NCBI GenBank assembly: GCA_030428785.1
Contig: JAUIEF010000005.1
Location: 10,919-74,918 of the forward strand
Reading direction: 5' to 3'
Source: a bacterium
GTDB lineage: Bacteria > Planctomycetota > B15-G4
Length of the DNA stretch: 64,000 nt
Of the stretch, positions 21,396 through 43,699 are shown piece after piece. The notes under the pieces were generated by a model. The model searched no databases and was not told the DNA's origin. It saw only the letters and a list, made by a program, of their open reading frames with translations. The first letter of the stretch is position 1. Every line of letters begins with the position of its first letter. Both the position numbers and the translations under genes were made by a program.

Positions 21396-22553
21396 ATGAT
21401 GACCCGTTCGTACCCCACGCCGCGCGGCGCCCTCGGCGCGCTCGCGCTGGCCCTGCTCGGGCTGCCGGCCGCGGCGTCCGCGCAGTACGAGGCGCACTTC
21501 GCGACCGTCGGCGGTCAGTTCTCCCAGCTCCCCTCGGCGCTCCAGTCGTTCACGAGCCCGACCTCCATCGACCTCTGGACCGCGAGCGGCCAGGACGGGT
21601 GGTGTCAGGGATGGATCAGCAACTCGAACGGATCGGTCAGCACCTCCGCCGCGCGGCTCGCCGTGGACAGCACGACCCGCAAGCAGGCGGGGTGCGCGAC
21701 CGACGCGCTCTCGCTGGTCATCTCGCGGATCGAGTGCGACGACCTCGTGTTCGAGCTCGCGGGCGGCGGGGGGAGCGGCACGATCCCCGTGATGCTCCCG
21801 GCGGGCCTCACGATCGCCGCGGACCTCGGCTACCCCGGCAACCCCGACGACGGGCTCCACGAGCTGAAGGTGGGCGTCTGCGTCGCGAACTCACCCGAGG
21901 ACCTCGTCGACGAGGCGAAGTACAAGGGCACGACAACGGACCCCGGCGAATTCCACGACCTCACGCAGATGAGCGTGCAACCGCTCGGCCAGGTGCTCGA
22001 GATCACGTTCGAGCTGCAGGTCATCGCGGTGTCGACGCAGGGCGGCGACCCCCTGGGCCACGACGTCATCGACCAGGCGGCCGCGCTCCGCCTCGGCGAC
22101 CCCGCCACGGGCGAGCTCTTCGTGCTGCCGCCGGGCGTCACGGCGAACGCGCCGTCCATCGGGCTCGTCGACAACGTGCTCACCGAGCCGTGGGTCGACC
22201 TCGGCGGCGGGTCGTCGGGCGTCGCGGGTCCGCCGACGTTGACGGGCGGCGGCACACTCACGGCCGGCGGTCCGGTGTCGCTCGCGCTCACCGACGCGCC
22301 GCCCTCGGCGCCGATGCTCGCCTGGGTGTCGTTCGCGCCGACGCCCTTCGGCGCGCTGGGCGGGACCGTGCACGCGTTCCCCTACGCGTCCCAGCTGTTC
22401 CTCGGCGCGGACGGCGCCGGTGACTGGGGCGCGACGACGACGTGGCCCGCGGTCCCCGTCGGGACGCAGGTCTGGTTCCAGTTCATCGTGCAGGACGCGA
22501 GCGTCCCCGACGGACTCACGCTCTCGAACGGCCTGCGCGCGACGACGCAGTGA
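21396..22553 (+). CDS. Secreted protein of unknown function with conserved C-terminal module
   Basis: RBS aggag; signal peptide ...LGALALALLGLPAAASA|QY; C-terminal GTQVWFQFIVQDASVPDGLTLSNGL. Confidence 0.75.
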   Translation: MMTRSYPTPRGALGALALALLGLPAAASAQYEAHFATVGGQFSQLPSALQSFTSPTSIDLWTASGQDGWCQGWISNSNGSVSTSAARLAVDSTTRKQAGCATDALSLVISRIECDDLVFELAGGGGSGTIPVMLPAGLTIAADLGYPGNPDDGLHELKVGVCVANSPEDLVDEAKYKGTTTDPGEFHDLTQMSVQPLGQVLEITFELQVIAVSTQGGDPLGHDVIDQAAALRLGDPATGELFVLPPGVTANAPSIGLVDNVLTEPWVDLGGGSSGVAGPPTLTGGGTLTAGGPVSLALTDAPPSAPMLAWVSFAPTPFGALGGTVHAFPYASQLFLGADGAGDWGATTTWPAVPVGTQVWFQFIVQDASVPDGLTLSNGLRATTQ

Positions 22554-22773
22554 CCGCCGGAGCGAGCGGCCGTCGCGCCCCCGGCGGGGCGGCCGCGATG
22601 CGTCGCGACAAGCAAGGCCGTCCGCACGCGCGCAGTGCACCCGCACCCCGCGTCGCGATCGTCGAGGCCGTCCGATGCGCAGAACCCGAGATCAGGCGCT
22701 TCACCCGCGGGCGCGGAGCGCCCGTCGGTTGCTAGCGCCTCCGAGCGACGAAGCCCACCCCGTCAATTCCGAC

Positions 22774-24321
22774 TCAGAGGTAGGAACTCACAGGACCCAT
22801 GGACCTCCGCACGAGGTCAAACACCTGGAACTCCACCGGCGCTTTCCACAACCGGTTGCGCAACCGCACCCCCGCCGACTTCCGCAGCAGGTGCGAGATG
22901 GGTCCCTTGCCGCCCGCGATGCCGTCGAACCACGGCGCCATCTGCGTGAAGCGCGCCCAGACCTTCTGGACCTCTTCGGGGATGGGGCCCCACCACGAGT
23001 TGAACTTGTAGTCGAAGAAGCGGCCCCACTCCTCGAAGGAGGTCGGCACCGGGTAGTTGTTCACCTCGACGGACGGCTGCCAGAACTGGCTCCCGGGGAT
23101 GGGCCGGTACGGGAAGACCTCGACGGAGCAGGACGGGTACCGCGTCTTCATGTCCGCGGCCTCGTAGATCGTCTCGTACATCGACTCCACGGACTCGCCG
23201 GGGTACCCGATGATGTAGGTGAGGCCGGACTTGATGTCGAGCTCGTGCATCTTGCGCATCGCCTCGTCCGTCTGGCCTTCCTTGATGGCCTTGCGGATGA
23301 GCCGCTGCGTCTCCTCGGTGCTGGCCTCGGCGCCGAACCACATGAGGTGGTTGCCGGACCGCTTCATGAGCTCGAGCGTGTCCCAGTCGTACTGGCAGAT
23401 CTGCTTGATCTCGATCGTGCCGTTCCAGTTGATGTTCAGGCCCTTGTCGAGCAGGCCCTCGCAGAACTCGATCATGCGCTTCTTGGCGACGCCGAAGTTG
23501 GCGTCCTGGAAGCGCAGCACGTCGAAGGGGTCCTTGCGGTGGATCACGGCGAGGCGCTCGACGAGCTCGTCGGCGTCGAGCGCGACCCAGCGACGACCGG
23601 CGATCTCCGGCGAGCAGCAGAACGCGCACGGCTCGGGGCAGCCGAAGCTGCTGAAGTAGCTGAAGCCGCGGTGCGGGCGGTTCGCGAGGTGGTGCGGCGG
23701 CGGCAGCCGGTTGCGCACGCGGTGACCGAACTGCGCGACGCGCTTCTGGAGGTCGTAGTACTTCTGCAGCTCGATGAGGTGGAACGACGGCTCGGGCAGG
23801 TCGTTGAGGTGCGTGACGGCGCGCTTGGGCGTCCAGTGCACGGCGCCGTCCTGCTTGATCACGAGGCCGGCGATGCCGGTGAGGTCCGCGCCGCGCCCGC
23901 CGTCCTTCCAGGCGTCGAGCAGCTCGCCGAAGGTCACCTCGCCCTGGCCGTGGACGACGGCGTCGCAGATCTCGCTGCCGAGGTAGAGCTCCGGGATCGC
24001 CGACGGGAACCAGCCGCCCCACACGATGGGCAGGTCCGGGTACCGCGTGCGCACGGCCTGCGCGACCTGCGCGCCGTCCCACACCTGGTACCCGAGGATG
24101 GCCGAGCTGCCGAAGACCTGCGCGTCGGCGCACGCCTCGAGCACCTGGTCGAGGTAGTCCGGCTCGGTCATCGCGTCGACGACGACGACCTCCCAGCCCT
24201 GCCGCTCCGCCATCGGCGCGATGTGCAGGAGCTCGAGCGGGAGGAGGTCCGCCGACGGCAGGTCCCCGATCTCGGGGTCCACGCGCGACGGCAGGAACAG
24301 GACGACTTTCGGCTTCTTCAC
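22774..24321 (-). CDS. Cobalamin-binding radical SAM protein
   Basis: N-terminal B12-binding domain (PLELLHIA, IVWGGWFPS, VVHGQGE); SFGCPEPCAFC (CxxxCxxC); FQDANF, FGAE, YIIGYPGE. Confidence 0.9.
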   Translation of the reverse strand: MKKPKVVLFLPSRVDPEIGDLPSADLLPLELLHIAPMAERQGWEVVVVDAMTEPDYLDQVLEACADAQVFGSSAILGYQVWDGAQVAQAVRTRYPDLPIVWGGWFPSAIPELYLGSEICDAVVHGQGEVTFGELLDAWKDGGRGADLTGIAGLVIKQDGAVHWTPKRAVTHLNDLPEPSFHLIELQKYYDLQKRVAQFGHRVRNRLPPPHHLANRPHRGFSYFSSFGCPEPCAFCCSPEIAGRRWVALDADELVERLAVIHRKDPFDVLRFQDANFGVAKKRMIEFCEGLLDKGLNINWNGTIEIKQICQYDWDTLELMKRSGNHLMWFGAEASTEETQRLIRKAIKEGQTDEAMRKMHELDIKSGLTYIIGYPGESVESMYETIYEAADMKTRYPSCSVEVFPYRPIPGSQFWQPSVEVNNYPVPTSFEEWGRFFDYKFNSWWGPIPEEVQKVWARFTQMAPWFDGIAGGKGPISHLLRKSAGVRLRNRLWKAPVEFQVFDLVRRSMGPVSSYL

Positions 24322-24367
24322 GATGCGGGTGTGTCCGGGGTGGGCGGGCGGCTCGGGCCCGCGGTCC

Positions 24368-24631
24368 TCAGGAGAGGACGGGTTGCTTGTTGCCGGTGAG
24401 GATCGCGTCGACCTCGCCGTCCTCGGGGAAGCGGCCGGCCTGCAGCTTGGAGAAGACCAGCTCGCCGTTCTTGGCGACCTCGAAGGCCCCCCCGTCGCTG
24501 GGGATCAGCAGCAGGGACTCGATACCGCGCTTGTGCTTCTTGAGCAGCTCCTCCGCCAGACCGACGGCTCGAGGCTCGTAGTTTCAGACGGCGCAGTAGG
24601 TGAGTTCGATCTTCACGTCGCGGGGCTCCAT
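24368..24631 (-). CDS. Rdx/SelW-SelT-SelH family selenoprotein with CxxU motif (TGA at 24586-24584 read as Sec)
   Basis: Manual translation MEPRDVKIELTYCAV-U-NYEPRAVGLAEELL...GGAFEVAKNGELVFSKLQAGRFPEDGEV; homology continues across the TGA; TAGACT -10 box at 24671-24666. Confidence 0.88.
24550..24574 (-). promoter_or_regulatory. Bacterial SECIS-like hairpin downstream of the Sec codon
   Basis: mRNA CCUC-GA-GCCG-(UCGGUC)-UGGC-G-GAGG; G-containing apical loop begins 19 nt after the UGA. Folded by eye. Confidence 0.55.
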
Positions 24632-24771
24632 TCGGGATCGGGACGTCGAGGTGAGGGACCGCTTGAGTCTAGGTCGATCCCCGGAGAGGCGCCAGTCGGG
24701 CCGGGGGCGCGGCGGCGTCCTCCGCCTGCTCATCGGCACCGCGCGGTCCCCGGGTGGACCCGACCTCTCCC

Positions 24772-26808
<2,037 letters not shown>

Positions 26809-26831
26809 CTAGCGACGGGGCGGCGGCGCGG

Positions 26832-27902
26832 TCAGCCCTCGTCGGCGGCCTCCAGGAACATCGCGTCGCCGTAGGAGAAGAGGCGGTAGCCGGCGTCGAC
26901 GGCGTGCCGGTAGGCGGCGAACACGGTCTCGTGCCCGGCGAAGGCCGCGACGAGGACCAGGAGCGTGCTCTTGGGCTGGTGGAAGTTCGTGACGAGCGCG
27001 TCGACGGCGCGGAACGCGTGGCCCTCGCGGATGAAGAGGCGCGTCTCGCCGGGACCGGCGCGCAGGGACCGGCCGTCGTCGGAGACCGCCGACTCGAGGG
27101 TGCGCACGACCGTCGTCCCGACGGCGACGACCCGGCCGCCCGCGGCGCGCGTCTCCGCGAAAGCGGCGGCCGTCGCGTCCGGGACCTCGAAGCGCTCGAC
27201 GTGCATCTCGTGGTCGTCCAGGCGCGCGGCCCGCACCGGGCGGAAGGTGCCCTCGCCGACGTCGAGCCGCAGGCGCTCGACGCGCACGCCGCGCGCCGCG
27301 ACCTCCTCGAGCAGCGCGTCGGTGAAGTGGAGGCCGGCGGTGGGCGCGGCGACGGCGGTCGCCCGGTCGCCGCGCGCGAAGACCGTCTGGTAGCGCTCGC
27401 GGTCGGCGGCGTCGCGCGGGTCGGCCTCCGCGTCGCGGCGGATGTACGGCGGCAGCGGCATGCGGCCGCTCCCGAAGACGACCGCCTCGACGTCGCGGCC
27501 GCCGCGTGCCTCGACGACGAAGCGCCCGCCGCCGAGCGCGCGCGCGACCCGCCACGGCTCGCCGGCGACGTCCAGCTCCTCGCCCTCGGCGAGCGTGCCG
27601 CGCGCGCCGAGCAGCACCGTCGCGCGCGCGCCCTCCGCCTCGATCACCAGGACCGACACGCGTCCGCCGGTGGACCGCCGCGCCGTGAGCCGCGCCGGCA
27701 TGACGCGCGCCTCGTTGAGCACGAGCAGGTCGCCGGACCGGAGCAGTCCGGGGAGGTCCGTGACGGATCGGTCCGTCGGCGGCGTGTCGGCGTGACGGAC
27801 CACGTGCAGCAGCCGGCCGCCGTCGCGCCGCTCGGGCGGCTCCTGCGCGATGGCCTCCGGCGGGTGCCGGTAGTCGTAGCGGTCGATCTCGGGCGTGTCC
27901 GT
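26832..27902 (-). CDS. queA: S-adenosylmethionine:tRNA ribosyltransferase-isomerase (start codon non-canonical or uncertain)
   Basis: YDYRHPPEAIAQEP, GRMPLPPYI, YQTVFA, AAPTAGLHF, VAVGTTVVRTLE, TNFHQPKSTL, YRLFSYGDAM. The conserved N-terminus extends upstream of the track start 27803; ACG at 27902 follows SD GAGGTG. Confidence 0.93.
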   Translation of the reverse strand, partial: TDTPEIDRYDYRHPPEAIAQEPPERRDGGRLLHVVRHADTPPTDRSVTDLPGLLRSGDLLVLNEARVMPARLTARRSTGGRVSVLVIEAEGARATVLLGARGTLAEGEELDVAGEPWRVARALGGGRFVVEARGGRDVEAVVFGSGRMPLPPYIRRDAEADPRDAADRERYQTVFARGDRATAVAAPTAGLHFTDALLEEVAARGVRVERLRLDVGEGTFRPVRAARLDDHEMHVERFEVPDATAAAFAETRAAGGRVVAVGTTVVRTLESAVSDDGRSLRAGPGETRLFIREGHAFRAVDALVTNFHQPKSTLLVLVAAFAGHETVFAAYRHAVDAGYRLFSYGDAMFLEAADEG

Positions 27903-27972
27903 CGTCGCACCTCGCTGCTGGGCCCGCGCGCGGCGCCGCGTGCGGACGCCCGCGACGCGCGGGTCGCAGAGT

Positions 27973-31306: not shown

Positions 31307-31981
31307 GTGCCACGCGACCCGGACGAAGCGCCGCTCTTCCCGCTGCCCCGCGGCGCGATCCTGCCCGGCGAACTGCTCCCGCTGCACGTCTTCGAGCCGC
31401 GCTACCGCGCCATGATGGAGGTCGTCCGCGAGGGCGCGCAGCTCATCGCCGTCGGCACGCTGCTCCCGGGGCTCGGCTGCGACGACGAGGGCCGCGCGGC
31501 GGTGGGCGGCGTCGTGGGCATCGGCCGGCTCGTCCGCGACGAGCAGAACGACGACGGCACGTCCGACATCGTCCTGCACGGCGTCACCCGCGGGCGCATC
31601 ACGGACGAGCTGCCGACCTCGCCGTTCCGCACCGTGCGCTTCGAGCGCCAGGCGCGGATCTCGGACGTGCACCCCGCGGAGGCGTTCCGGCTGCGGCGCG
31701 ACCTGCTCCAGGGCATCGCGACGCGCGCCTCCGAACCGCTCGACTTCGACGTGACGGCCGCCTTCGACGTCGGCACGCTCGCCGACCGCATCGCGAGCTC
31801 GTTGCGCCTCTCGCCCGGGGCACGCGTCGCGATGATGCAGGCCTTCGGCCTCGAGCAGCGCGTCGACACGCTGCTCCGACTGCTCGACGAGCCGCGCCAC
31901 CGCGCCCGGCTCGTCGACCTCGTCCCTTCCCTGGGCGACTTCACCCTGTCCCTCACGGACGGCAAGGACACCGCTCCATGA
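31307..31981 (+). CDS. Lon peptidase substrate-binding (LON N-terminal) domain protein
   Basis: PLFPLP...LPGELLPLHVFEPRYRAM; extended -10 TGcTATCGT (31292-31300) 6 nt before the GTG. Confidence 0.85.
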   Translation: MPRDPDEAPLFPLPRGAILPGELLPLHVFEPRYRAMMEVVREGAQLIAVGTLLPGLGCDDEGRAAVGGVVGIGRLVRDEQNDDGTSDIVLHGVTRGRITDELPTSPFRTVRFERQARISDVHPAEAFRLRRDLLQGIATRASEPLDFDVTAAFDVGTLADRIASSLRLSPGARVAMMQAFGLEQRVDTLLRLLDEPRHRARLVDLVPSLGDFTLSLTDGKDTAP

Positions 31982-34900
31982 AGACCGTTTTCGCCGCGCT
32001 GGGCGGCGCCGTGGGCACCACCCTGGCCTGCTGGCGCCTCATCCTCATCCTGTGGCTCGTCATCGCGTCGGCCGCGTGGGTGCTCAGCGCCCCCGTCCGC
32101 ACCGAGATCCAGGACACCTTCTCGCACAGCCCGATGGCGACCGGCCTGCTCCAGGCCTTCGACAGCGAGGCGTTCGTGGACTTCTGGTCGGCGGAGCGCG
32201 ACCCCGTCGGTCGGACGTCGCGGCTCGTGCGGGAGAGCGCGTTCGGCTGGATCATCCTCTGGACGATCCTCTCGGCGGGCGTGCTCGCGCGGGTCGCCGA
32301 CAAGCATCGCTTCGACGGGTTCCTCTCCGCGTGCGCGCGGTACGGGCACCGCTTCGTGTGGCTGCTCGCGCTGTCGCTCGTCGCGCTGTGGGGCGTCGGC
32401 TGGTTCAACGACCACCTGTCGGGCTGGGTGACGTCGGCGCTCGTCGGCGACGACAACGCGGCGGGCGCGGGCCTCCTCGGCTGGAGCATGACGCTCAAGA
32501 CGCTCTTCGTGCTCGCGATCATGGGCGTCGTCGTGACGTCGATCCGGTTCGCGCGGCTGCGCGTCATCCTGCTCGAGGAGCGCTTCGTGCTCGTGAGCTG
32601 GCTGAGGGCGCTCGCGTCCGTCGTGCGCCACCTGCCGTCGATCGGTCTCGGGCGCGTGCTGTCGCTGTGGCCCGTCGTGCTCGCGTTCGTCGTGTACGAG
32701 CTGGGCACGTCGGCGGTGCTCGGAGGCTGGGAGCCCATCCCCGGCCTGCGCACGGAGTGGCACCTCGTGCTCGTCATGCAGCTCGCTCAGGTGCTCCTCG
32801 TCGCCGCGCTCGTGTACCGCATGGCGGTGGACGCGCGGCTGTGGATCATCGTCGCGCCGACGGTGGAGCTGGGCGCTCCCACGGCGGCGGTCGCGGCCGC
32901 GACGGCGACGGCGGGCGGCGCGACGGCGATGTCCGGGACGGGCGGAGCCGCGGCTCCCGCGGGCGCTCCGGCAGCGCCCGTGCCGGCCGGCGCCGCGGCC
33001 GGAACCGCCACCGGCGCGACGACCGGAGCAGCAGCCGGAGCCGGGACCGGGCCCGCGACCGGAGTGGCAGCCGGAGCCTCGGCGGCGCCTCCGGCGTCCG
33101 CGAAGCCGGCGGGATCGCCCGCGCCGGCCAAGTCGCCGGACGCCCCGGGCGGGTCCCCGGCGCGCACGGGCGGCGACGCGTCCGCCGCCGGCGGCGCGCC
33201 GGACGTGACCTCGGTCTCCGTGAGCGGCGCGGGCCGCGAGACGACGGCCGCGAAGCCGGCGGTCCCCGCGAAGCCGCCCGCATCGCCGTCCCCCGCTCCC
33301 GGGTCGTCCGAGCCGACCTCCTCGGTGCCGAGCGACACGACGACGATCGCGACGACCCGCTCGAGCACGCCGAAGTCCCCGGACGGCGCGCCCCCGAAGG
33401 CGGCGGGCGGCTCCTCCCCGAGCGGCGCCTCGTCCTCCGGATCGGGCTCCCCGTTCTTCCCCGACGCGCCGCCTCCGAAGCGCCCGGACGATGAATGCCC
33501 GACGTCGGGGAGCGGCGGCACGAAGGGCTTCCTCGTGCTGGCGCTCGCGCTGACGGCGGGCGTGCGGCTCGCGGCGCAGGACGCGCCCGCCGCGCCCGCC
33601 ACCGCGAGCGAGCCCCCCGCCGTCGCGCGGTCGGACGACCGGCGCCCGGTCCACCGCAACGCGTACGCCATCGACGTCACGGTCGACGTGCTCGGGCGCA
33701 CCGTCGGCGGCGTGGAGCGGGCCACGTTCATCAACGAGACGTCGAAGCCCGTCGACGAACTGTGGATGCACCTCTACGCGTCCGCGTTCAGCAACACGAA
33801 GACGATCTGGATCGCGAACGGCCGCGAGGACGCGATCGAGGACCGCGGCGACGAGCTCGGCGGGTACCTCGACGTGCGGTCCGTGCGCACGCCCGACGGA
33901 CGCGACCTCGCCGACGCCACGAGCATCGCGAACACGCTCATGCGCGTGTCGCTCGACGAACCCGTGCCGCCCGGCGGACGCACGACGATCGTCGTCGAGT
34001 TCGAGACGCGCTTCCCGCACATCATCGCGCGCATGGGCCAGGTCGGCCGGCACATCGACGGCATGCAGTGGTTCCCGAAGTTCTGCGCGCACGGTGAGAA
34101 CGGCTGGCGCAAGCGGCCCTTCTACCGGACCGGCGAGTTCTTCGCGGACTTCGGCTCGTACGAGGTCACCTTCCACTACCCGGAGACCGTGGGCGACGAG
34201 CCGCTCGTGCTCGAGGCCACGGGCGTGCCCGGCGAGGCCCAGCCCGACGGCGCGGGGTGGCTGCGGCGCACCTTCCGCGCGGACGACGTGCACGACTTCG
34301 CGTTCTGCGCGGACACGGCGTTCCGCCGGTACGAGGACACGTGGGAGGACCCGACCTCCGGGCGCACCGTGGAGGTCGTCTACCTCTGCCAGCCGTACGC
34401 GGAGCCCAAGGCCGAGCAGGTCCTGTCCGTGCTCCGGAGCTGCCTCGACGCGTCGGCGACCTGGTGGATGCCGTATCCGTACCCGCGCCTCGTCGTCGAC
34501 GGGCTGCCCCACTCGCGGGGAGGCGGCATGGAGTACCCCATGCTGTTCACGATCAGCCAGCGGTTCCCCAACCACCTCGGCTGGTTCGTCGACCTCACCG
34601 AGGACCCCGCGGGCGTCACCGCGCACGAGTTCGGTCACCAGTACTGGTACGGCATCCTCGCGTCGGACGAGGTCGAGGAGGCCTGGCTCGACGAGGGCGT
34701 GAACGACTGGGGCACGACGAAGCTCATCGAGCACCACTGGCCGGACGCCGGGCGCACCGACGCGTTCACGTTCCTCGACCGGAAGCTCGTGCGCGAGGCG
34801 TTCAACGGCGGCGTGCGCGGCGGCCTGCCCTTCACCGCCGCCGAGATGTCGCTGCAGAACGTGCTCGGTTGGAGGACGAGCCCGTTCCACGACACGCCCC

Positions 34901-35859
34901 CGGTCGCCGAGCCGGCGCGCCGCCCGACGCTGCTCGGCTTCCGCGTGCCGGACGTCGCCTCGCTCCGTCTCCCCGACATGAGCGCCGATCGGCCGGTGTG
35001 GGACAAGGCGCGCTACCGCTCCGTCGCGACGACGCGCCCGCTGTCGGCGCCGTCGCGGGACTTCACCGAGGGCTACGGCGGGCTCGTCTACAACAAGACG
35101 TCGCTCGTCCTCGAGACGCTCGAGCGACACCTCGGCGACGAGGTCATGGGCGAGGTCATGAAGACCTACGTCGACCGCTTCGCCTTCGACCACCCGCGCG
35201 GCGAGGACTTCCTGGGCGTCGTGAGCGAGGTGACCGACGGCGCGCACGACGACCTCCTCGACCAGCTCATCCGCACGACACGGACCGTGGACTGGTCCGT
35301 GCAGGAGGTCACGTCGCGCAAGGTCGAGCCGCTCGTCGGGTACACCGACCAGCGGCGTCCGGGCGACCCGGTCGCGTGGACCGGCCCCGAGCCGGAGGGG
35401 GACGGCGACCCGGACGAGGCCCCGTCCATCCCACGCCGCGTCTGGCGCTACCTCTTCGACGCGCCCTACCCGGGCACCGGCTCGGCGTCCGCCGCCGACG
35501 CGCCCACCCGGCCGACCTTCGAGGACGCCGCGGAGGCTCCCGCCCAGTGGGCCACCCGCTACGTCGTCCGCCAGCTCGGTCAGGTCGAGGCGCCCGTCGA
35601 GGTCGAGGCGCGGTTCGCGGACGGCAGCGTGCAGCGGCACACCTGGGACGGCGTCGGCGGGTACCAGGCCTTCGAGCACCTCACGTCGTCGAAGCTCACG
35701 GCGGTCGTCATCGATCCGGACCGCAAGTTCATCCTCGACCTCGACGTGAACAACAACGGGTACGTGCTGCAGGCCGACCACACGACGACGCGCGCGCTCG
35801 CGGCCTACTCACACTTCTGGACGCAGGGCGTACTCGGCGCCTGGTCGCTCGTCTTCTGA
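31978..35859 (+). CDS. Polytopic membrane domain + Ala/Pro/Ser-rich linker + M1-family (gluzincin) metallopeptidase in a single ORF
   Basis: Several N-terminal TM helices, ~200-aa low-complexity linker, GGMEYP, HEFGH, EAWLDEG, YNK; ATGA overlap with the upstream gene. Confidence 0.8.
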   Translation: MKTVFAALGGAVGTTLACWRLILILWLVIASAAWVLSAPVRTEIQDTFSHSPMATGLLQAFDSEAFVDFWSAERDPVGRTSRLVRESAFGWIILWTILSAGVLARVADKHRFDGFLSACARYGHRFVWLLALSLVALWGVGWFNDHLSGWVTSALVGDDNAAGAGLLGWSMTLKTLFVLAIMGVVVTSIRFARLRVILLEERFVLVSWLRALASVVRHLPSIGLGRVLSLWPVVLAFVVYELGTSAVLGGWEPIPGLRTEWHLVLVMQLAQVLLVAALVYRMAVDARLWIIVAPTVELGAPTAAVAAATATAGGATAMSGTGGAAAPAGAPAAPVPAGAAAGTATGATTGAAAGAGTGPATGVAAGASAAPPASAKPAGSPAPAKSPDAPGGSPARTGGDASAAGGAPDVTSVSVSGAGRETTAAKPAVPAKPPASPSPAPGSSEPTSSVPSDTTTIATTRSSTPKSPDGAPPKAAGGSSPSGASSSGSGSPFFPDAPPPKRPDDECPTSGSGGTKGFLVLALALTAGVRLAAQDAPAAPATASEPPAVARSDDRRPVHRNAYAIDVTVDVLGRTVGGVERATFINETSKPVDELWMHLYASAFSNTKTIWIANGREDAIEDRGDELGGYLDVRSVRTPDGRDLADATSIANTLMRVSLDEPVPPGGRTTIVVEFETRFPHIIARMGQVGRHIDGMQWFPKFCAHGENGWRKRPFYRTGEFFADFGSYEVTFHYPETVGDEPLVLEATGVPGEAQPDGAGWLRRTFRADDVHDFAFCADTAFRRYEDTWEDPTSGRTVEVVYLCQPYAEPKAEQVLSVLRSCLDASATWWMPYPYPRLVVDGLPHSRGGGMEYPMLFTISQRFPNHLGWFVDLTEDPAGVTAHEFGHQYWYGILASDEVEEAWLDEGVNDWGTTKLIEHHWPDAGRTDAFTFLDRKLVREAFNGGVRGGLPFTAAEMSLQNVLGWRTSPFHDTPPVAEPARRPTLLGFRVPDVASLRLPDMSADRPVWDKARYRSVATTRPLSAPSRDFTEGYGGLVYNKTSLVLETLERHLGDEVMGEVMKTYVDRFAFDHPRGEDFLGVVSEVTDGAHDDLLDQLIRTTRTVDWSVQEVTSRKVEPLVGYTDQRRPGDPVAWTGPEPEGDGDPDEAPSIPRRVWRYLFDAPYPGTGSASAADAPTRPTFEDAAEAPAQWATRYVVRQLGQVEAPVEVEARFADGSVQRHTWDGVGGYQAFEHLTSSKLTAVVIDPDRKFILDLDVNNNGYVLQADHTTTRALAAYSHFWTQGVLGAWSLVF

Positions 35860-35885: not shown

Positions 35886-37487
35886 ATGCCCGACCGGCAC
35901 CCGTCCGTCCCGTCACGCTCCCGTCCGGTCGCCCGTCGCGGCGCCGCGCTCGTCGCGGCCGTGACCGCCACGCTGGCGTGCGGCGAACCGACTCCGCCCC
36001 GCGACGTGAACCTGCTGCTCGTGAGCTGGGACACGCTGCGCGCCGACCGGCTCGGCGCGTACGGCAACGACGAGTGGGGCGAGAGCCCGTCACCGCGCGT
36101 CGACGCGCTCGCCGCCTCCGGCGTCGTGTTCGAGACGGCCTACGCGCCGCGCGGGCAGACGCACCCGTCCATCGGCTCGCTGCTCACCGGCAAGTACCCG
36201 GCGACGACGGGACTGCGCGAGAACGCGTACCCGATGCCGGAGGAGCACACGACGCTCTTCGAGCACCTCGACGCCGCCGGGTACCAGACCGGCGTCTTCA
36301 TCGCGAACTTCGAGGTCGCGCACCCCGTCGAGGGCTGGGTCGCCCGCGGGGCCGACGTCTCGGCGGACGGCTACGGCGGCGAGCGCACGGGCGTCACCCA
36401 GAAGAACGAGGGCAAGCTGCAGGTCGAGTGGGACGACCGCGTCGAGCGCGCGGCCGCCGCCTTCCTCCGGGGCGTGGACACGTCGCGGCCGTTCGCGCTC
36501 TGGACGCACTACTACGACATCCACAAGCCCTACAACCCGCCGGCAGGGCTCGTCGACCGCTACGGGACGTCGCCCGACGTCTCCGGCCCGCTCGAGGCGC
36601 CGGGCCCGTTCTCCGCCCCGCAGCTCGAGCTCTTCCTCGGGAGCATCACGCTCGGCCGGAAGCCGCCGGCATCCGACGCGGACCTCGTGCGCGTCCGCGG
36701 GCTCTACGACGCGACCGTGCGCGCCACCGACGACCGCCTCACGCGCATCCTGCAGCAGCTCGACGACATGGGCGAGCTCGAGGACACGTACGTCGTCTTC
36801 ACCTCGGACCACGGCGAGGAGCTCTACGACCACAACCGGTACTTCTATCACGGCGCCTCGGTCTACGACGGCGTCGTGCGGGTGCCGCTCGTCGTGGCCG
36901 GGCCGGACGTCCTCGAGGGCCTGCGGGTCCGCAGCCTCGGCCGCACGATCGACGTCACGCCGACGGTGCTCGACCTGCTCGGGCTTGCCGCGGACCCCGA
37001 GATGGAGGGCGTGTCGCTGGCGCCCGTGCTGCGGGGCGAGGCCGCCGAGACCGGCGTCGACCACGCGGTCGTCGAGTGGCAGGACCTCATCTTCGCGGTG
37101 AGCGACGGGCGGCGGAAGCTCATCTACAACGAGCGCCACACCTGGCCGCGCAAGGCGCCCTACGCATACGTCGACGGCGTGGGCTTCGAGATCGACTGCA
37201 TCGAGGCCTACGACCTCGTCGCCGACCCCTTCGAGCAGACGAACCTCCTCGAGGGCTTCGACCTCGCCGCGATCGACGGCGGGCGCGCGCTGCCCGAGGA
37301 GTTCCGCCCGCTCTATCGCGCGCTGCGCGACTTCAAGGCCGACCCCCGGCACAGCGGCGAGATGGACCTCGACACGCTCGACGAGGCCGCCCGCAAGCGG
37401 CTCGCGCAGCTCGGCTACGTCGGCGCCGGCTCCGTGAGCGACGGGCGCTCGGACAGCATGTTCGCGGATCCCTGCGTGACACGCTGA
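35886..37487 (+). CDS. Sulfatase-like (alkaline phosphatase superfamily) lipoprotein
   Basis: Lipobox LACG, DTLRAD, THPSIGSLLTG, HYYDIHKPY, TSDHGE, HG, C-terminal LAQLGY. Confidence 0.85.
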   Translation: MPDRHPSVPSRSRPVARRGAALVAAVTATLACGEPTPPRDVNLLLVSWDTLRADRLGAYGNDEWGESPSPRVDALAASGVVFETAYAPRGQTHPSIGSLLTGKYPATTGLRENAYPMPEEHTTLFEHLDAAGYQTGVFIANFEVAHPVEGWVARGADVSADGYGGERTGVTQKNEGKLQVEWDDRVERAAAAFLRGVDTSRPFALWTHYYDIHKPYNPPAGLVDRYGTSPDVSGPLEAPGPFSAPQLELFLGSITLGRKPPASDADLVRVRGLYDATVRATDDRLTRILQQLDDMGELEDTYVVFTSDHGEELYDHNRYFYHGASVYDGVVRVPLVVAGPDVLEGLRVRSLGRTIDVTPTVLDLLGLAADPEMEGVSLAPVLRGEAAETGVDHAVVEWQDLIFAVSDGRRKLIYNERHTWPRKAPYAYVDGVGFEIDCIEAYDLVADPFEQTNLLEGFDLAAIDGGRALPEEFRPLYRALRDFKADPRHSGEMDLDTLDEAARKRLAQLGYVGAGSVSDGRSDSMFADPCVTR

Positions 37488-37551
37488 CGAGGCGGCCGCC
37501 TCGCGGGCTGTCGTAGCGCCCGGCCGGATCGCGACCCGCCCCCCCAACGCA

Positions 37552-37588: not shown

Positions 37589-37618
37589 CCGGTCGTCAGA
37601 CCGTCTGCGCGATCGGGA

Positions 37619-39289
37619 TCAGAGGATCTGGATCGACAGGCCGTCCGTGCCGTAGATGCCGCCCGGCGGGACCGCGCCCGGGTCGGAGACGAACCACTGG
37701 GCGTAGAACTCGAAGCCCGCGAGGATCGCGTCGCCGGGGATCGGCATGTTGAAGCTCGCGAGGCCGTCCGCGCTCGTGGTGACCGGCGCCTTCAGGAAGA
37801 TGCCGCCGATGCCCACGTTGACCGGGACCGGGAAGCGCGGGTCCGGGTAGGGCGTGCCGGCGGGATCGTCGTTGAACGACAGCACGAGCGTGGCCGGACG
37901 GTTCGGACGCGCGTCGCCGAGACCGATCACGAAGTTGGCGTTGCCGCGGTTCGCGGGGCCGTTCGTGAAGATGCTGGCGAAGCCGCCGACGCTGTCCATG
38001 CTCGCGACGCCGAAGTTCACGTTCAGCGACGGCAGCTCGCTGCGGAGCGTCGGGCGTGTGAACGGGAAGACGTTGTCCACGAGGCGGCTGTCGGTCATGC
38101 CGTTCTCGATGAAGTCGACGAGGTCGAGCTTCTCCTGGGCCGTGAGGTTCAGGACGAGGATGTTCGCGTCGAGGTTGCCGTCGTCGAAGTTGCCGCCCTG
38201 GTCGTAGAAGTCCACGAGCTCGGTGATGCTGTCGACCGAGCCGTTGTGGAAGAGCGGCACTCGGAGCGCGGCGTTGCGGACCATCGGCGTCTTGAACTTG
38301 GCGATGTCGGCCGGGTCACCCGTGAACCCCATGCGGCCGGGGTCGTCCGCATCGGGGCGGACACCGACGTTGTGGTAGTCGTTGTTCATGGTGAACGGCA
38401 GCGTGTGACAGGCCGCGCAGTTCGCGTTGCCCTGGAAGAGGTCGAAGCCGGGCTGGAACGGGCCCAGGTCCGGGTTCACGCCCTTCAGGAAGTCGTCGAG
38501 CGCCGTCTCGTCCGAGATGAGCGTGCGCTCGTAGTTCGCGATGGCGAACGCGATGCGCTTGGACGTGACGTCCGGCGTGCCGTAGACCGCCTCAAACATG
38601 TCGGGGTAGGTCGGGTTGTCGGCGAGGAAGTCGAGCATCTCGGCCGGCAGGTTCGTGGCGAGCGCCATGGGCGTCGCGGTCTCGAGCTTCGCGGTGATGT
38701 CGTCCCAGGTGCGACCCAGGCTGGACATCTCGACATCGGAGAGCGGCGGCCCGACGGCCTGGCTCTCGAGCGCGCCGAGGTACGGGATCTCGACGAGACC
38801 GGTCTGCGGGTCGGTGAACGCCTGCGTGGCGCGGCCGTCCCAGAAGACGTCGTTGAAGTAGACGGAGTTGACCGTCGGCGGCGCCTTGCGGTCCGTCGAC
38901 TGCACGGCGAAGCCGTGGCTGGCGGAGAAGAGCAGGTCGTTCGTGAAGTGGTCGATGCGGCGGACACCCGGCGAACCGTTGATGTCGTCATCCGTGCCGA
39001 ACACGTTGTCGGGACCGGGGTGCGTCGCGGCGCCGATGGAGCGCGGGTCCGATCCGCCGTTCTCGTGGATGTGGCAGGTGCCGCACGACATGGTGTTGTC
39101 GTGGCTCATCTGCTCTTCCCAGAACAGGAACTTGCCGAGCGTGTCCTGGTCGGGCAGCAGCGGGTTCTCCGCCGGGAACTCGGGCGGGTTCGGCAGGGGC
39201 GCGTCGGCCTGCGACATCGCGGCAGGCGTCATCACCGCGGCGGCCAGCGCCGCGCAGGCGCCCAGCGTGCGGAAGCGGATGGGTGTCAT
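37619..39289 (-). CDS. Di-heme cytochrome c peroxidase/MauG family protein with C-terminal extra domain
   Basis: Signal peptide; LGKFLFWE, CGTCH, FWDGRA, CAACH, FKTPMVRN, PLFHNG; ~130-aa C-terminal extension. Confidence 0.9.
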   Translation of the reverse strand: MTPIRFRTLGACAALAAAVMTPAAMSQADAPLPNPPEFPAENPLLPDQDTLGKFLFWEEQMSHDNTMSCGTCHIHENGGSDPRSIGAATHPGPDNVFGTDDDINGSPGVRRIDHFTNDLLFSASHGFAVQSTDRKAPPTVNSVYFNDVFWDGRATQAFTDPQTGLVEIPYLGALESQAVGPPLSDVEMSSLGRTWDDITAKLETATPMALATNLPAEMLDFLADNPTYPDMFEAVYGTPDVTSKRIAFAIANYERTLISDETALDDFLKGVNPDLGPFQPGFDLFQGNANCAACHTLPFTMNNDYHNVGVRPDADDPGRMGFTGDPADIAKFKTPMVRNAALRVPLFHNGSVDSITELVDFYDQGGNFDDGNLDANILVLNLTAQEKLDLVDFIENGMTDSRLVDNVFPFTRPTLRSELPSLNVNFGVASMDSVGGFASIFTNGPANRGNANFVIGLGDARPNRPATLVLSFNDDPAGTPYPDPRFPVPVNVGIGGIFLKAPVTTSADGLASFNMPIPGDAILAGFEFYAQWFVSDPGAVPPGGIYGTDGLSIQIL

Positions 39290-39395
39290 TCGGACCTCTT
39301 GCGAAGCGAGAGAGAAAAGGTGATGGGGGGAGTCCAGCGGACGGCCGCCCGCCGGATCCGAGGATCCGGCCCGGGAACGGCGACACGGCCAGAGA

Positions 39396-39425
39396 AGTCT
39401 ACCCCGACTCCGAAAAAGGTGTCAA
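39396..39425 (-). promoter_or_regulatory. sigma70 promoter for the peroxidase gene
   Basis: Minus strand TTGACA-18 nt-TAGACT in a locally AT-rich patch. Confidence 0.65.
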
Positions 39426-39489
39426 TGCATAAGCATTTCGCTCAACTCCATACGATGAAACGACTTACGGCATCCACCCTGGGAATCCG

Positions 39490-40347
39490 ATGAATAGCCA
39501 CGAACCGCCGGCGTCCCCCACCGCGCGCTGGGCGCGCTCGTCCTGCGCCTGGGTCACGCACGCCGAGGCCATCGCGATCATGACGCGGGACGCGAGCGAC
39601 GCGCTCGTCGAGGCGCTCGACGCACCCGCCGACGGACGCGTCCTGGACGTCGCCTGCGGCCCAGGCGATCCCTCGCTGCGTCTCGCGAGGAGCCGATCGT
39701 CGGTCGGGAGCGTCGTCGCGATCGACGCGTCGGTGGTCATGCTGCGCCACGCCGCCGAACGGGCCGCCGAGGACGACCTCCGCCTGCGCGGGATCCACGC
39801 ACGCGGTGAGCACCTGCCGTTCCGCGACTCCTCCTTCGACGCGCTCTGCTCGCGCTTCGGCGTCATGTTCTTCGAGGACGTCCCCGCGTCGCTCGCGGAC
39901 GCCCGTCGCGTGCTGCGTCCCGGCGGGCGCGCCGTCTACGCCGTGTGGGCCCCGCGCGAGGACAACGCCTACTTCACGGTCGCCGACGAGGTGCTCGACG
40001 AGCACGGCTGCCCCGCCGCCGAGGTCCCGCCCGACGCGCCGACGCCGTTCCGATTCGGGACGTCCGGAGAGCTCGCGGCGCTCATGCGGAGTGCCGGCTT
40101 CGCCGACGTGTCGGAGCGCTCCGTATCCATCGCCATGCGACTCCCCGGCTTCGGGCCGGGCGACCTGCTGGACTTCCAGCGGACGATCTCGCCGTCCATA
40201 GGCGACCGGTCCGCGGAGCTCACGGACGACGCGCTCGGCGAGGTGCGGAGCGCGATGGCCCGCCGGCTCGCGCCGTGGACCACGGACGACGGGCTGTCGC
40301 TGCCCGGTCGGATCCTGATCGTCGCGGGTTCGCGGCCGGCGACGTGA
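39490..40347 (+). CDS. Class I SAM-dependent methyltransferase
   Basis: VLDVACGPG, LPFRDSSFDALCSRFGVMFF, RVLRPGGR. Confidence 0.88.
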   Translation: MNSHEPPASPTARWARSSCAWVTHAEAIAIMTRDASDALVEALDAPADGRVLDVACGPGDPSLRLARSRSSVGSVVAIDASVVMLRHAAERAAEDDLRLRGIHARGEHLPFRDSSFDALCSRFGVMFFEDVPASLADARRVLRPGGRAVYAVWAPREDNAYFTVADEVLDEHGCPAAEVPPDAPTPFRFGTSGELAALMRSAGFADVSERSVSIAMRLPGFGPGDLLDFQRTISPSIGDRSAELTDDALGEVRSAMARRLAPWTTDDGLSLPGRILIVAGSRPAT

Positions 40348-40403
40348 CGCGGTCGCGGGGGCGCCCTGCTCCCGTCGGGGAGCCGGGCGCCCCGCGCGCC
40401 GCG

Positions 40404-41513
40404 TCAGGGCTGCATGCCGCCCGAGGTGAGCAACGTCGCCATCTCGTCGAGGTCGAGCACGAGCGGCACGCGCGGGTCGTTGCTGTTGAGCATGACGTGG
40501 CGCACGTTGAGGTTCTGCGCCGCCTCGAGCGCCAGGAAGATCGAACCGCCCGTCGAGTTGAGGATGTCGTTGCGCAGCTGGTTGCGCAGCGCCTCCGCCT
40601 GGTCCACGGCGAGCTGCCCCTGCGCGCCGAGCGAGATGGCCTCGGCCTCGCCCTCCGCGCGGACACGCGTCTCGTAGACCATCGCGGCCGCCTCGACCTC
40701 CGCGATCATGACCTCGTAACGGCTGCGCTCCTCCTGCAGGACCTTGTTCCACTCCTCCGTCTTGGACTTGATCTCCGCCTCGATCTGCTTCTCGATCGAG
40801 TTCGTGACCTTCTCCTCGTCGGCCTGCGCCGTGAGCGCCACGTCGAGCAGGGCCTTCTGCGTGTAGTACTGCTTCTCCTGGAGCTTGGCCTCGTACTGCG
40901 CGCCGAACGCGACGCGGCGGATGAGGATCGCGTCGGCCGAGACGTGGAACTCAGCGAGCGTCGCGTTGAGGTCGGGGAGCACGTCCGACGCGCGCTGGAC
41001 CCGCTTCTCGGTGTCCTGGAAGTCCTCGGACGTGAGGTTCGAGAGCTTGTTGCGCAGCACGCTCTCGACCTTCGACTTCACGTTCTGCGCGTAGTCGGCC
41101 ATGATGCCGTCCGACACGATGCGCCACGCGCCGCCTTCGATGATGCGGTACGGCACCGTCAGGTCGAGCGTCGTGAGGTTGCCGTCCGTCGTGCGCAGCT
41201 CCATGGGCTGGTCCCAGATCGTCGTCTGGAGACCGTGCTCGGTGACACCGCGCGGCTGGTCGCGGGCGGACTCGACGGACGCCGTGAAGTGCAGGAAGTG
41301 CGTCCGCCGCGGGAGGTAGTGCCATTTGTGCACGCCGGTGATGCCCCAGTACGTGCCCGTGGTGAAGTCCTCCTGCGTGATGCCGCCGCCCCACAGCGAC
41401 TGACGCACGCCGATGTCCATGGGCTGGACGCGCTCGAAGAGCAGCATGCAGAGGATCGAGGTCGCGACGAGCAGCGTGACGGCCGTGGCGAGCGTGCGAG
41501 CGAAGCGTGTCAT
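40404..41513 (-). CDS. SPFH/Band 7 domain membrane protein
   Basis: N-terminal TM, LRTTDGNLTTLDLTVPYRI, coiled-coil tail, ends VLDLDEM. Confidence 0.8.
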   Translation of the reverse strand: MTRFARTLATAVTLLVATSILCMLLFERVQPMDIGVRQSLWGGGITQEDFTTGTYWGITGVHKWHYLPRRTHFLHFTASVESARDQPRGVTEHGLQTTIWDQPMELRTTDGNLTTLDLTVPYRIIEGGAWRIVSDGIMADYAQNVKSKVESVLRNKLSNLTSEDFQDTEKRVQRASDVLPDLNATLAEFHVSADAILIRRVAFGAQYEAKLQEKQYYTQKALLDVALTAQADEEKVTNSIEKQIEAEIKSKTEEWNKVLQEERSRYEVMIAEVEAAAMVYETRVRAEGEAEAISLGAQGQLAVDQAEALRNQLRNDILNSTGGSIFLALEAAQNLNVRHVMLNSNDPRVPLVLDLDEMATLLTSGGMQP

Positions 41514-42664
41514 CGTCCACCTCCGAGCGCGGCCGTGGTGCCGCCGGACGACTCGAGCTCGACGCGCGTCGGGCTGGAGTCCTTCGTGTAGGGCACGAGC
41601 GAGAACTCGATGTCCCGCAGGCGTTCGGCCAGCCGCTCGCGCACGAGCACCTCACCCTGCTTGGCGAGCGCCTCCGTCTTGGCCTTGAGGCCCTCCGCCT
41701 CCTTGAGCGCCTTCTCGCGCATGCCGCGCGCCTCCTCCATGAGCCGCGCCTGCGACGCCTGGCCGTCACCGACGACGCGCGTCTTGTAGGCGTCCGCCGC
41801 GCGCTCGATGCGCACGCGCTCCTTCTGGGCCGAGATGAACTCGGCGTTGAGCGTGCCCTTGAGCGACTCGAACTCCACCGTCTTCGTCGAGTCGATCTCG
41901 GCGAGCCTGCGCTCGCGCTCTCGACGGAGCTGCTCGGCGCGGGCCTTGATGCGCTCGACCTCCTGGTTGGCCACCTTGCGGTCCTCGATGGCCTTCTCGT
42001 ACCGCTCGTCGAACTTGGGCTTCGGCGTGATGATCTGGATCACGTCGATCCCGTGGTCGTTGAGCATCGCGTTGAGCCGGTCGCGCGACTCCGCCGCGGC
42101 GATGTTGTAGTTGGTCGGGTCGGAGATCTCGGACGAGGAGAACTTCCCGAACTCGTCGCGCAGGATCGACCGGGCGAATGCGCGCACCCAGTTGATCTTG
42201 AAGTTGTCGCCGGAGCCCGAGTCGGCCAGCACGACGTCCGCCTTGAGCGGGTCGATGCGGTACTGCAGCTCCATGCGGTCGAACCACAGGTTCGAGCCGT
42301 CGTTGGCGCGCACCGTGAGCTTCTTCACGTGGTTGCTGTCCTGGTCGCGGTCGCCCTCCATCACGAAGAGCTGCACGCTCTTGTCGAACAGGAAGCCCTG
42401 CTCGAGGAACGGGATGAAGAACTGGTACCCCGGCTGCGTGTGGACCTGCGTCTCGCCCGTGAGGTAGTTCGCGATGACCGCGACCTGGTCGGCGTTCACC
42501 TCGATGATGCCGCCCTGCCCGCTGGCCAGCACGACGATCAACATGAGCGCGAGGACCACGACCAGCGCGAGGATGACGGCTCGGGCGGGTCGCCGCCGCG
42601 AGGAGCGCCGGTCCGGCGGATCCGTCTCCGCGAAGGCGCGTTCGAAGTCTTCTGAGGATGCCAT
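41510..42664 (-). CDS. SPFH/Band 7 domain membrane protein (HflC/HflK-like)
   Basis: TM helix, PGYQFFIPF, TVRANDG, ILRDEFG, coiled coil; ATGA overlap with the next SPFH gene. Confidence 0.8.
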   Translation of the reverse strand: MASSEDFERAFAETDPPDRRSSRRRPARAVILALVVVLALMLIVVLASGQGGIIEVNADQVAVIANYLTGETQVHTQPGYQFFIPFLEQGFLFDKSVQLFVMEGDRDQDSNHVKKLTVRANDGSNLWFDRMELQYRIDPLKADVVLADSGSGDNFKINWVRAFARSILRDEFGKFSSSEISDPTNYNIAAAESRDRLNAMLNDHGIDVIQIITPKPKFDERYEKAIEDRKVANQEVERIKARAEQLRRERERRLAEIDSTKTVEFESLKGTLNAEFISAQKERVRIERAADAYKTRVVGDGQASQARLMEEARGMREKALKEAEGLKAKTEALAKQGEVLVRERLAERLRDIEFSLVPYTKDSSPTRVELESSGGTTAALGGGR

Positions 42665-42877
42665 GGGGCCTCCGGGACGAGTGCCGAGGCGGACCCCGGC
42701 GTCGAGGTGTGCCCCCCCGGCCGAGCCCGCGTCGGGCCCATTGTTGGGCATCCGGAGGCCGGATTGCACCTCCCGTCCCGTGCTCGACGACGCGCGCGGA
42801 CGCATCGGAGCGCGGTGCTCCGGCGGAAAGGCGGGCTCCGGGATGCGCGCCCGGAGCCCGCCAGTGCAAGCCGTCGG

Positions 42878-43699
42878 TCAGTCGACGAAGTGCACGGTGA
42901 AGCGGTTGCTCACGAACTCGACGGACGCGCCGTCCTCCGAGAGCACGGCGAACGCGAGGTAGAGCTCGTCCGGCACGCCGGCCGGGAACAACGTGTCGAG
43001 CTGCGCCTGCGTGAGCGACGCACGACCGTCCTCGGTCGCCGTGAGCTCGCCGACGAAGCCGGGCAGCACGCCGAGCGCGGTCGCGCGGAGGAACGCGGTC
43101 GTCGTCGCGTCCACGGCGAACGGGAGCTCCGCCTCGCCGACGGTCGTGACGCCGCCGGTCGTGCTCGCCACCACGACGTACGGGTGGTGCGCGAAGCCTC
43201 CGGCGTGGTCGTCACCGTGCGTGTGGTCCGCCTCCGGGATGGAGATCGAGAGACGGATGTCGTCGTCCCCCGTGCTCGTCCCCGGGACGAGACCGAGCGC
43301 GGTGAGCGCGCCGCCCCGACCCTCCTCGAGGTCGAGCAGCGCCGCCGAACCGCCGACGGTGCTGCGCAACACGAGGTGGCCGTTGTGCTCGAACGCCTCG
43401 AGCATCGTCGTCTGCGCGGTGACCGCCGCGATGATGTCCTCGTTCGGCATGAGGCCGCCGGAGAGCGCGATCGTGTGCGTGGCGTTCCCGTCGGAGACGC
43501 TGAACTGGGCGTCGGCCGGGACCTCGAACGAGTGACCTTCGCTGAGCCGGTACGTCGGCACGCCGCTGCCCTTCACGAACGTGATGTCCGTGAGGATCTC
43601 CGTGGCCGAGGCGCTCGAGAGCGGCACGGGCACGTGGTGGGCGAAGACGACGCTCGCCAGCAGGGCGGCGGAGAGGGTGGTGATGAAACGCTTGGACAT
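42878..43699 (-). CDS. Secreted protein with His-rich loop, unknown function
   Basis: Signal peptide MSKRFITTLSAALLASVVFA|HH; DHTHGDDHAGGFAHH; RBS aagga. Confidence 0.7.
   Translation of the reverse strand: MSKRFITTLSAALLASVVFAHHVPVPLSSASATEILTDITFVKGSGVPTYRLSEGHSFEVPADAQFSVSDGNATHTIALSGGLMPNEDIIAAVTAQTTMLEAFEHNGHLVLRSTVGGSAALLDLEEGRGGALTALGLVPGTSTGDDDIRLSISIPEADHTHGDDHAGGFAHHPYVVVASTTGGVTTVGEAELPFAVDATTTAFLRATALGVLPGFVGELTATEDGRASLTQAQLDTLFPAGVPDELYLAFAVLSEDGASVEFVSNRFTVHFVD

Follow-up and report, generated by a model that had tools for sequence, protein, structure and literature searches.

The question raised by this locus is whether secreted proteins that are otherwise unrelated carry the same module at their C-terminal ends and, if so, what that module does. 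The window, a stretch of 64,000 nucleotides from a Planctomycetota genome of the lineage B15-G4 (assembly GCA_030428785.1, contig JAUIEF010000005.1, positions 10,919 to 74,918), encodes three exported proteins, here called P1, P2 and P3, for which the initial annotation proposed a common terminal module of about 120 residues. We find that the proposal holds for P1 and P2 and fails for P3. The module is a real, compact and autonomously folding domain that has not been curated, and on balance we think it probable that it acts as a terminal sorting or anchoring tag, a handle through which a single envelope partner would recognize many proteins.

P1 is encoded on the forward strand (21396..22553) and, as judged from its translation, is an exported protein of 385 residues consisting of a signal peptide (residues 1-30; 21396..21485, forward strand), a cargo part of about 230 residues and the terminal domain (residues 263-385; 22182..22550, forward strand). 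The signal peptide reads MMTRSYPTPRGALGALALALLGLPAAASA and is followed by Q (LPAAASA/Q, the slash marking its end). P1 gave no match in Pfam or NCBIfam, its cargo part belongs to no family and a search of the genome revealed no paralogue of that part. P2 is encoded on the reverse strand (37619..39289) and is an exported di-haem cytochrome c peroxidase of the MauG/MbnH-like kind, with 556 residues that comprise a signal peptide, a CCP_MauG di-haem domain (PF03150, 2.7e-36, above the cut-off) and a tail of about 137 residues. The two CxxCH haem motifs in its translation (CGTCH and CAACH) place P2 in the di-haem peroxidase/MauG family; its matches to TIGR03791 and TIGR04039 (about 1e-36) fall under the cut-offs of these models (about 125 bits versus 363-444), and hence the assignment does not extend to the equivalog level (MauG, MbnH). 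The di-haem enzyme has six further paralogues in this genome, all of them without the terminal domain, which is fused to the P2 copy only. As initially annotated, all three proteins, P3 included, have signal-peptide-like starts.

When the tails of P1 and P2 were compared by BLASTP alone, the resemblance was marginal (24% identity, E=0.053). This pairwise similarity would not stand by itself, and it is the family context that makes the link solid. The assembly (5.68 Mb in 321 contigs, 85% complete) was translated into six-frame open reading frames (ORFs). With the 123-residue P1 tail as the query, phmmer returned 124 domain matches at E≤1e-5, nearly all of them at the end of the ORF, and iteration of a hidden Markov model (HMM) with 124 positions led to a stable set of 166 ORFs, with P1 at 3.7e-47 and P2 at 8.3e-11. 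The P1 tail is a canonical member of this family and belongs to a 'GGTVHAFP' subtype, its C-terminal residue being Q instead of the usual P. Because the iteration itself could have drawn P2 in, we built a leave-out HMM from the first-round sequences only, from which P2 and the two sequences closest to it had been removed. This model scored the P2 tail at 24.8 bits (genome-wide E=0.0018), compared with a maximum of 5.6 bits among 1000 shuffles. The two nearest relatives are clear members in their own right (5e-11 and 1.5e-6), and P2 matches them directly at 5e-6 and 9e-5. Taken together, the leave-out score and the membership of these relatives show that the P2 tail (residues ~420-556; 37622..38032, reverse strand) is a divergent member that carries an inserted loop, NDDPAGTPYPDPRFPVPVNV. 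The motifs from which the resemblance had first been noticed, L-x-D-A-x-P, aromatic-x-Q-aromatic-x-V-x-D and S-N/D-G-L, correspond to conserved columns of the family.

The third protein, P3 (42878..43699, reverse strand), is an exported His-rich protein of 273 residues (HGDDH..HHPY) that falls outside the domain family. BLASTP gave no significant match between P3 and P1, and a search with the family HMM failed to pick up the P3 tail at a threshold as loose as E≤10. HMM-HMM comparison with hhalign was likewise not significant, the probabilities being 7% with P3 alone and 8.9% with a six-sequence alignment of P3 homologues, for which its five homologous clusters had been gathered; the latter match spans only 33 columns (WPAGvP...SN versus FPAGlP...VSN). 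In the AlphaFold2 model of P3 (pLDDT 69) the tail region contains two helices, whereas the domain itself is all-beta. The HMM search, the hhalign comparison and the predicted secondary structure thus rule out P3 as a third member.

The consensus of the domain over its 124 positions is ADPWTDLGGGTAGTAGVPTLTGTGTLTPGSPVTLTLTDAPPSALALLWLGFSSTPVPFLGGTLVAFPFVVQLLFATDAAGALSLSTTWPAGLPSGTELYLQFWVQDPSAPDGLALSNALRATTP, and its end reads ...LSNALRATTP. In a sample of 21 sequences, G61 and Q100 are invariant and G8, L20, G24, G60, P67, G80, P89, D105 and N116 are nearly so. Proline is the final residue in 124 of the 166 copies (75%), and 52/166 end in the tripeptide TTP. There are two main subtypes, GGT.H (73 copies) and GG.LVP (41 copies), and the median identity is 32% between pairs of copies and 58% between a copy and its nearest paralogue, with nearest-neighbour values of up to 92%. 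The 20 residues that precede the domain have the composition of ordinary cargo; therefore, no linker stands before it. From the 21-sequence alignment, AlphaFold2 predicts with very high confidence (pLDDT 96.9, pTM 0.88) a fold with 11 strands and no helix.

We found no description of this domain under another name. A Foldseek comparison of the model with the PDB gave no match at E≤1e-3, and the top-scoring structures were generic sandwiches of the immunoglobulin (Ig)-like, FN3, macroglobulin, CBM39 and Wzt-C kinds with TMq <0.5, and a profile search of PDB sequences with the domain gave none at E≤10. Neither Pfam-A nor NCBIfam yielded a meaningful family for any of the 21 members at E≤5; in the Pfam scan 19 of them had no match at all, and the other two matched unrelated families insignificantly. 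In public records the carrier proteins go under names such as 'uncharacterized membrane protein' or 'hypothetical protein', with precomputed Pfam assignments that cover the cargo only, and a literature search yielded no paper describing the domain. The module proposed in the initial annotation is thus a real domain that no curated family covers, and the structural comparison likewise places no close PDB relative beside it.

The family is large and widely distributed. All 42 of the 42 genomes examined from the class to which this bacterium belongs, which consists of a single order, have the domain, with 4-11 copies per genome in one family of the class and >100, the ceiling of the scoring, in the family to which this bacterium belongs. 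When the Planctomycetota were sampled evenly, 57 of 301 genomes were positive at E≤1e-5, including about 15 families of other classes, so the expectation that the module would be specific to one lineage was not sustained. A search of 1.84 billion representative proteins retrieved 10,465 clusters at E≤1e-3, of which 4,891 remain at E≤1e-10.

A census of position in the window's genome showed that the domain lies ≤10 residues from the stop codon in 164 of the 166 ORFs. In the other two it directly follows the signal peptide; these encode an MBL-fold hydrolase (C175:43417-45378, reverse strand) and a giant multidomain protein of ~1650 residues (C250:29124-36089, forward strand). The domain is always found at one end of the mature protein (166/166), in single copy and never in tandem. 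In outgroup genomes, 30 loci yielded 28 recognizable copies, of which 24 run up to the stop codon and four are N-proximal, and in the best 150 of the 10,465 public clusters the domain is C-terminal in all. The module is consequently not strictly C-terminal, as had been supposed, since a minority of copies stand right behind the signal peptide. The smallest carriers, of 243-320 residues, still have cargo (for example a cupredoxin-like domain), and no tag-only protein was found among the carriers of this genome.

These observations bear on the idea of a mere structural spacer, in which the domain would be an Ig-like 'foot' that was spread by shuffling and duplication and has neither a shared partner nor a shared function. 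Ig-like fillers are common in bacterial surface proteins, and the expansion seen here is partly recent paralogy, as the upper values of nearest-neighbour identity indicate. A spacer would, however, sit uneasily with a fixed terminus in every carrier, with the absence of tandem copies and of proteins in which the domain stands alone, and with a C-terminal proline in 75% of the copies. Other classes of the phylum and the best 150 public clusters show the same placement, and the cargoes are unrelated, so that the domain must have been acquired or retained many times independently. We regard this explanation as very unlikely.

Next to position, export signals distinguish the carriers from other ORFs. 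An AxA/Q signal-peptidase-I motif following a hydrophobic run is present in 53 of 158 untruncated carriers (34%) versus 134 of 2310 control ORFs (5.8%), and lipoboxes are rarer in carriers (2/158, 1%) than in controls (148/2310, 6.4%). A first, looser signal-peptide heuristic was passed by 69% of controls and was uninformative; with a stricter one, 95/158 carriers (60%) and 206/800 controls (26%) were positive. In keeping with these figures, the MAFFT consensus of the cargo parts reads L..L..LA..A.AQ. The architecture envisaged in the initial annotation, in which a signal peptide, a variable cargo and a conserved terminal module follow one another, is thus borne out by 166 carriers and by the best public clusters, and the genome-wide HMM count, which had been proposed there as a test, agrees with it in the C-terminal placement of nearly all copies and in the enrichment of signal-peptide features.

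The cargo is diverse and typically extracytoplasmic. In a Pfam tally that covers 94 carriers, FG-GAP repeats occur in about 22. Further cargo comprises propellers (SGL, NHL, SBBP and Vgb-lyase-like), PKD domains and RCC1, a range of enzymes (peptidases M14, M12B, M36 and M10, multicopper oxidases, a sulfatase, a SASA esterase, MBL and metallophosphoesterase) and the families Spondin_N and CHRD. The tags are far more alike among paralogues (median 58%) than are the cargoes, which are unrelated.

The enzymes in this list raise the possibility of a removable C-terminal pro-domain or intramolecular chaperone, comparable to that of aqualysin or to the bacterial pre-peptidase C-terminal (PPC) domain (PF04151), which would assist folding or passage and have no role in sorting. 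The domain is indeed C-terminal on secreted enzymes, several metallopeptidases among them, and like the PPC domain it is a beta sandwich of similar size. Yet neither PF04151 nor any other Pfam model matches it at E≤5, its cargo is mainly non-protease, and most of it consists of non-enzymatic repeats (FG-GAP, NHL, PKD) that need no pro-domain. Moreover, no conserved cleavage motif or linker lies ahead of the domain, N-terminal copies occur, and the conserved free C-terminal proline suggests that this end is retained. A pro-domain function is in our view quite improbable.

A different proposal is that the domain is a ligand-binding module, similar to a lectin or a carbohydrate-binding module (CBM), which aims exoenzymes and adhesins at an external substrate such as a polysaccharide or the surface of prey or host. 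Its generic Ig-like sandwich would suit this role, as would the identity of its weak Foldseek neighbours, beta-GRP/CBM39 (TM up to 0.51) and the C-terminal O-antigen-binding domain of Wzt. The nearly invariant polar residues Q100, D105 and N116 could be read in the same way, and binding modules also work from an N-terminal position. Nevertheless, all of the Foldseek matches are weak (none at E≤1e-3, TMq<0.5), and CBMs vary in position, occur in tandem and stand behind linkers, whereas the domain is single, terminal in 166/166 and linker-free. Redox cargo such as the peroxidase, the cupredoxin-like protein and the multicopper oxidases would in addition gain little from being targeted to a substrate. 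We therefore consider ligand binding unlikely.

Comparison with known sorting systems shows a familiar logic in an unfamiliar domain. The closest parallel is with the C-terminal domains (CTDs) of the type IX secretion system (T9SS) of Bacteroidota (type A, PF18962/TIGR04183; type B, TIGR04131), which are also C-terminal beta sandwiches on unrelated Sec-exported proteins. In both cases there are tens to >100 carriers per genome, whose cargo is of similar kinds (proteases, adhesin-like repeats, PKD, glycan-active enzymes), and extreme C-terminal placement behind Sec-exported cargo is found here as well (164/166, with signal features enriched). T9SS cargo is cleaved by PorU and then either attached to anionic lipopolysaccharide or released. 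To our knowledge, T9SS is not known in Planctomycetota. In contrast to the T9SS CTDs, which have ~70-100 residues and seven strands, the present domain has 124 residues and 11 predicted strands, a minority of N-terminal copies and a conserved C-terminal proline. No T9SS model matched the 21 members at E≤5 or the full proteins, and the 50 best Foldseek matches of the domain model do not include a T9SS CTD.

The dockerins of cellulosomal enzymes offer a second parallel, being small terminal modules, mostly C-terminal and occasionally N-terminal, that are borne by up to about 100-200 secreted proteins and bind a common partner. They are, however, Ca-binding, helical duplicated segments of about 70 residues behind linkers, unlike the all-beta, 124-residue, linker-free domain found here, and the Pfam scan of the 21 members gave no match to the dockerin model PF00404. 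The PEP-CTERM/exosortase, LPXTG/sortase, GlyGly-CTERM/rhombosortase and MYXO-CTERM systems also combine a signal peptide, variable cargo and a shared C-terminal tag on many carriers. The tags of these systems consist of a short motif, a transmembrane helix and a basic tail, whereas the present domain is soluble, has no hydrophobic helix and ends in ...LSNAxxxTTP; none of the NCBIfam sorting-signal models matched the 21 members. The type XI secretion system (T11SS, Slam) likewise uses a folded C-terminal beta domain to mark Sec-exported proteins for delivery to the surface, but its classical cargo consists of lipoproteins with an eight-stranded barrel, while the carriers described here are poor in lipoboxes and their domain is modelled as a sandwich. 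The logic of the domain is that of a T9SS CTD or a dockerin, without detectable homology to either; it fails both the sequence and the fold tests, and we assign it to neither class.

Our preference for a sorting or anchoring tag is based on the strictly terminal, single-copy placement, the free C-terminal proline, the lack of a linker and the fact that the domain never occurs without cargo, together with the avoidance of lipoproteins, a conservation that exceeds that of the cargo and an architecture that is kept across classes. According to this model, a carrier would be exported through Sec and cleaved by signal peptidase I, after which the folded tag would be bound by a common envelope partner, which could be a translocon, a surface polymer or a receptor. 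This partner would then either move the cargo across the outer membrane or retain it at a common site, with the tag standing in for lipoprotein anchoring in this set of proteins. P1 and the di-haem peroxidase P2 would be two such cargoes, with P3 outside the set. The N-terminal minority and periplasm-type redox cargo such as P2 make docking or retention more likely, in our view, than a secretion signal of the threading type. The destination may be the periplasmic face, the outer membrane or the surface.

Several observations weigh against a sorting or anchoring tag. The N-terminal copies (2/166 here, 4/28 in the outgroups) are at odds with a pure C-terminal secretion signal. Some of the cargoes, namely the di-haem peroxidase, the cupredoxin-like protein and the multicopper oxidases, are of kinds that normally work in the periplasm, and therefore the destination may not be the cell surface. 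The carrier genes are scattered among housekeeping genes, and no translocon, protease or receptor emerged from the neighbourhoods, the beta-signal candidates or the MBOAT proteins that were examined. The T9SS machinery comprises the SprA/Sov translocon, PorV, PorU and GldKLMN; a search of the genome for SprA_N (PF14349) gave no match, with 14 control genomes likewise silent and the assembly 85% complete. We reject MBOAT acyltransferases as a protein-acylating anchor enzyme and as obligatory machinery, given their spread in domain-free genomes and the occurrence of their specific partner family in only 19/301 genomes. In addition, the signal-peptide calls are heuristic and were made on stop-to-stop ORFs. 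The function of the tag is inferred from these patterns, as are the export, surface-anchoring or S-layer-attachment roles that the initial annotation put forward.

It is also possible, and we suggest it tentatively, that the domain is the cargo tag of an undescribed sorting or surface-display pathway of the Planctomycetota, with dedicated envelope machinery that might be one of the seven secretin channels of this genome or a receptor. Such a pathway would serve 4-5% of the proteome and would be parallel to T9SS but evolutionarily unrelated to it, the beta sandwich with its free C-terminal proline being the element that the machinery recognizes. If true, a dedicated pathway would amount to a new type of protein sorting for bacteria. 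The envelopes of Planctomycetota are unusual and their secreted and surface proteomes very large, little is known of how these proteins reach the surface or stay there, and a single uncurated domain that is present on >100 proteins per genome and in >10,000 public clusters provides a strong handle on the problem. The domain delimits the likely exoproteome of mostly uncultured bacteria and could serve as bait for the receptor, translocon or polymer that is its partner. Thousands of proteins now labelled 'hypothetical' would be better annotated if a curated model existed in Pfam or NCBIfam, and the tag could be used for surface display in cultivable relatives.

The carrier genes are dispersed over the genome as 114 singletons, 19 pairs, three triplets and one run of five. 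Ser/Thr kinases are the sole family enriched beside them, 17 of 60 kinase genes being directly adjacent to a carrier versus a background of 8.2% (p=4e-6). The orientations of these pairs are mixed (divergent, tandem and convergent), and one of them lies in the window, where a Ser/Thr kinase gene with WD40 propellers (17497..21249, reverse strand; Pkinase 1.2e-39 plus WD40) is divergent from P1. The kinase family of about 60 combines Pkinase with WD40 or other sensor arrays, and this part of the phylum is known for an expansion of membrane-spanning kinases with periplasmic WD40 or TPR arrays (PMC11032199). The adjacency points to regulation rather than transport and may reflect pairs of a receptor kinase and a secreted partner.

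Several groups of proteins were considered in the search for machinery. The outer-membrane candidates selected by a C-terminal aromatic beta-signal comprised a TonB-dependent receptor, an alginate-export-like barrel and otherwise ordinary porins. A 'YFQF' family taken for barrels turned out to consist of MBOAT acyltransferases. The genome encodes 11 AlgI-like MBOAT O-acyltransferase paralogues, an unusually high number, most of which end in FxYFQF (contigs C205, C26, C112, C255, C277, C155, C27 (two copies), C153, C36 and C52), and every one has a membrane protein as its partner, either AlgX-like or SGNH-like and unannotated. Genomes with MBOAT proteins number 55/57 among the domain-positive versus 110/244 among the domain-negative (p=3e-14, uncorrected for phylogeny), a co-occurrence that the partner family does not share. 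MBOAT proteins are common and expanded in domain-free lineages too, their partners are polysaccharide-type acyltransferases (AlgX- or SGNH-like), and the specific SGNH-like partner family is absent from 7/16 genomes of the order to which this bacterium belongs. At most, the MBOAT proteins hint at an acetylated surface polymer. Genomes with a supposedly low copy number were of no use for pairing cargo with machinery, as they contain many divergent copies and the flanks of the loci extend for only 1.5 kb.

Seven proteins with a secretin domain (PF00263, all above the cut-off) are encoded on contigs C209, C275, C211, C106, C78 (two copies) and C58. For a 5.7-Mb genome this represents many outer-membrane channels of the type II secretion, type IV pilus or Tad kind; secretin-type channels for folded periplasmic proteins are thus available, unlinked so far to the tag. 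Three proteins of ~1700 residues with an aromatic end, considered as barrels, are instead lipoproteins with a poly-Gly linker. These paralogues of ~1650 residues (C275:51717-57173, C197:4692-9983 and C302:3-5183) have the lipobox LPAC, followed by about 12 Gly residues, and contain Gly-rich, beta-helix-like segments that belong to no Pfam family.

In the window, where the G+C content of the region is ~73%, the genes between P1, P2 and P3 include the housekeeping genes thiE (thiamine-phosphate synthase), ligA, queA, pdxS, hutU (urocanase) and hutH (histidine ammonia-lyase). Besides the Ser/Thr kinase, the other genes encode a B12-binding radical SAM protein, an endonuclease III-like protein, an M1-like peptidase, a methyltransferase and two SPFH proteins, and none of the window genes resembles export machinery. 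Between the two carriers, 31978-35859 (forward strand) encodes a protein of 1293 residues with a partial, weak Peptidase_M1 match at residues 1020-1087 and a hydrophobic C-terminus (...GVLGAWSLVF); the ORF that follows it, 35978-37516, belongs to no family. The gene for P3 lies between hutU and hutH, which function in histidine utilization, on one side and the two SPFH/Band-7 genes on the other. P3 matched no family in Pfam or NCBIfam, and its own family is tiny, comprising six clusters of exported proteins of ~270-330 residues with a conserved HGDDH..G..HHPY motif, in which the His-rich residues possibly bind metal.

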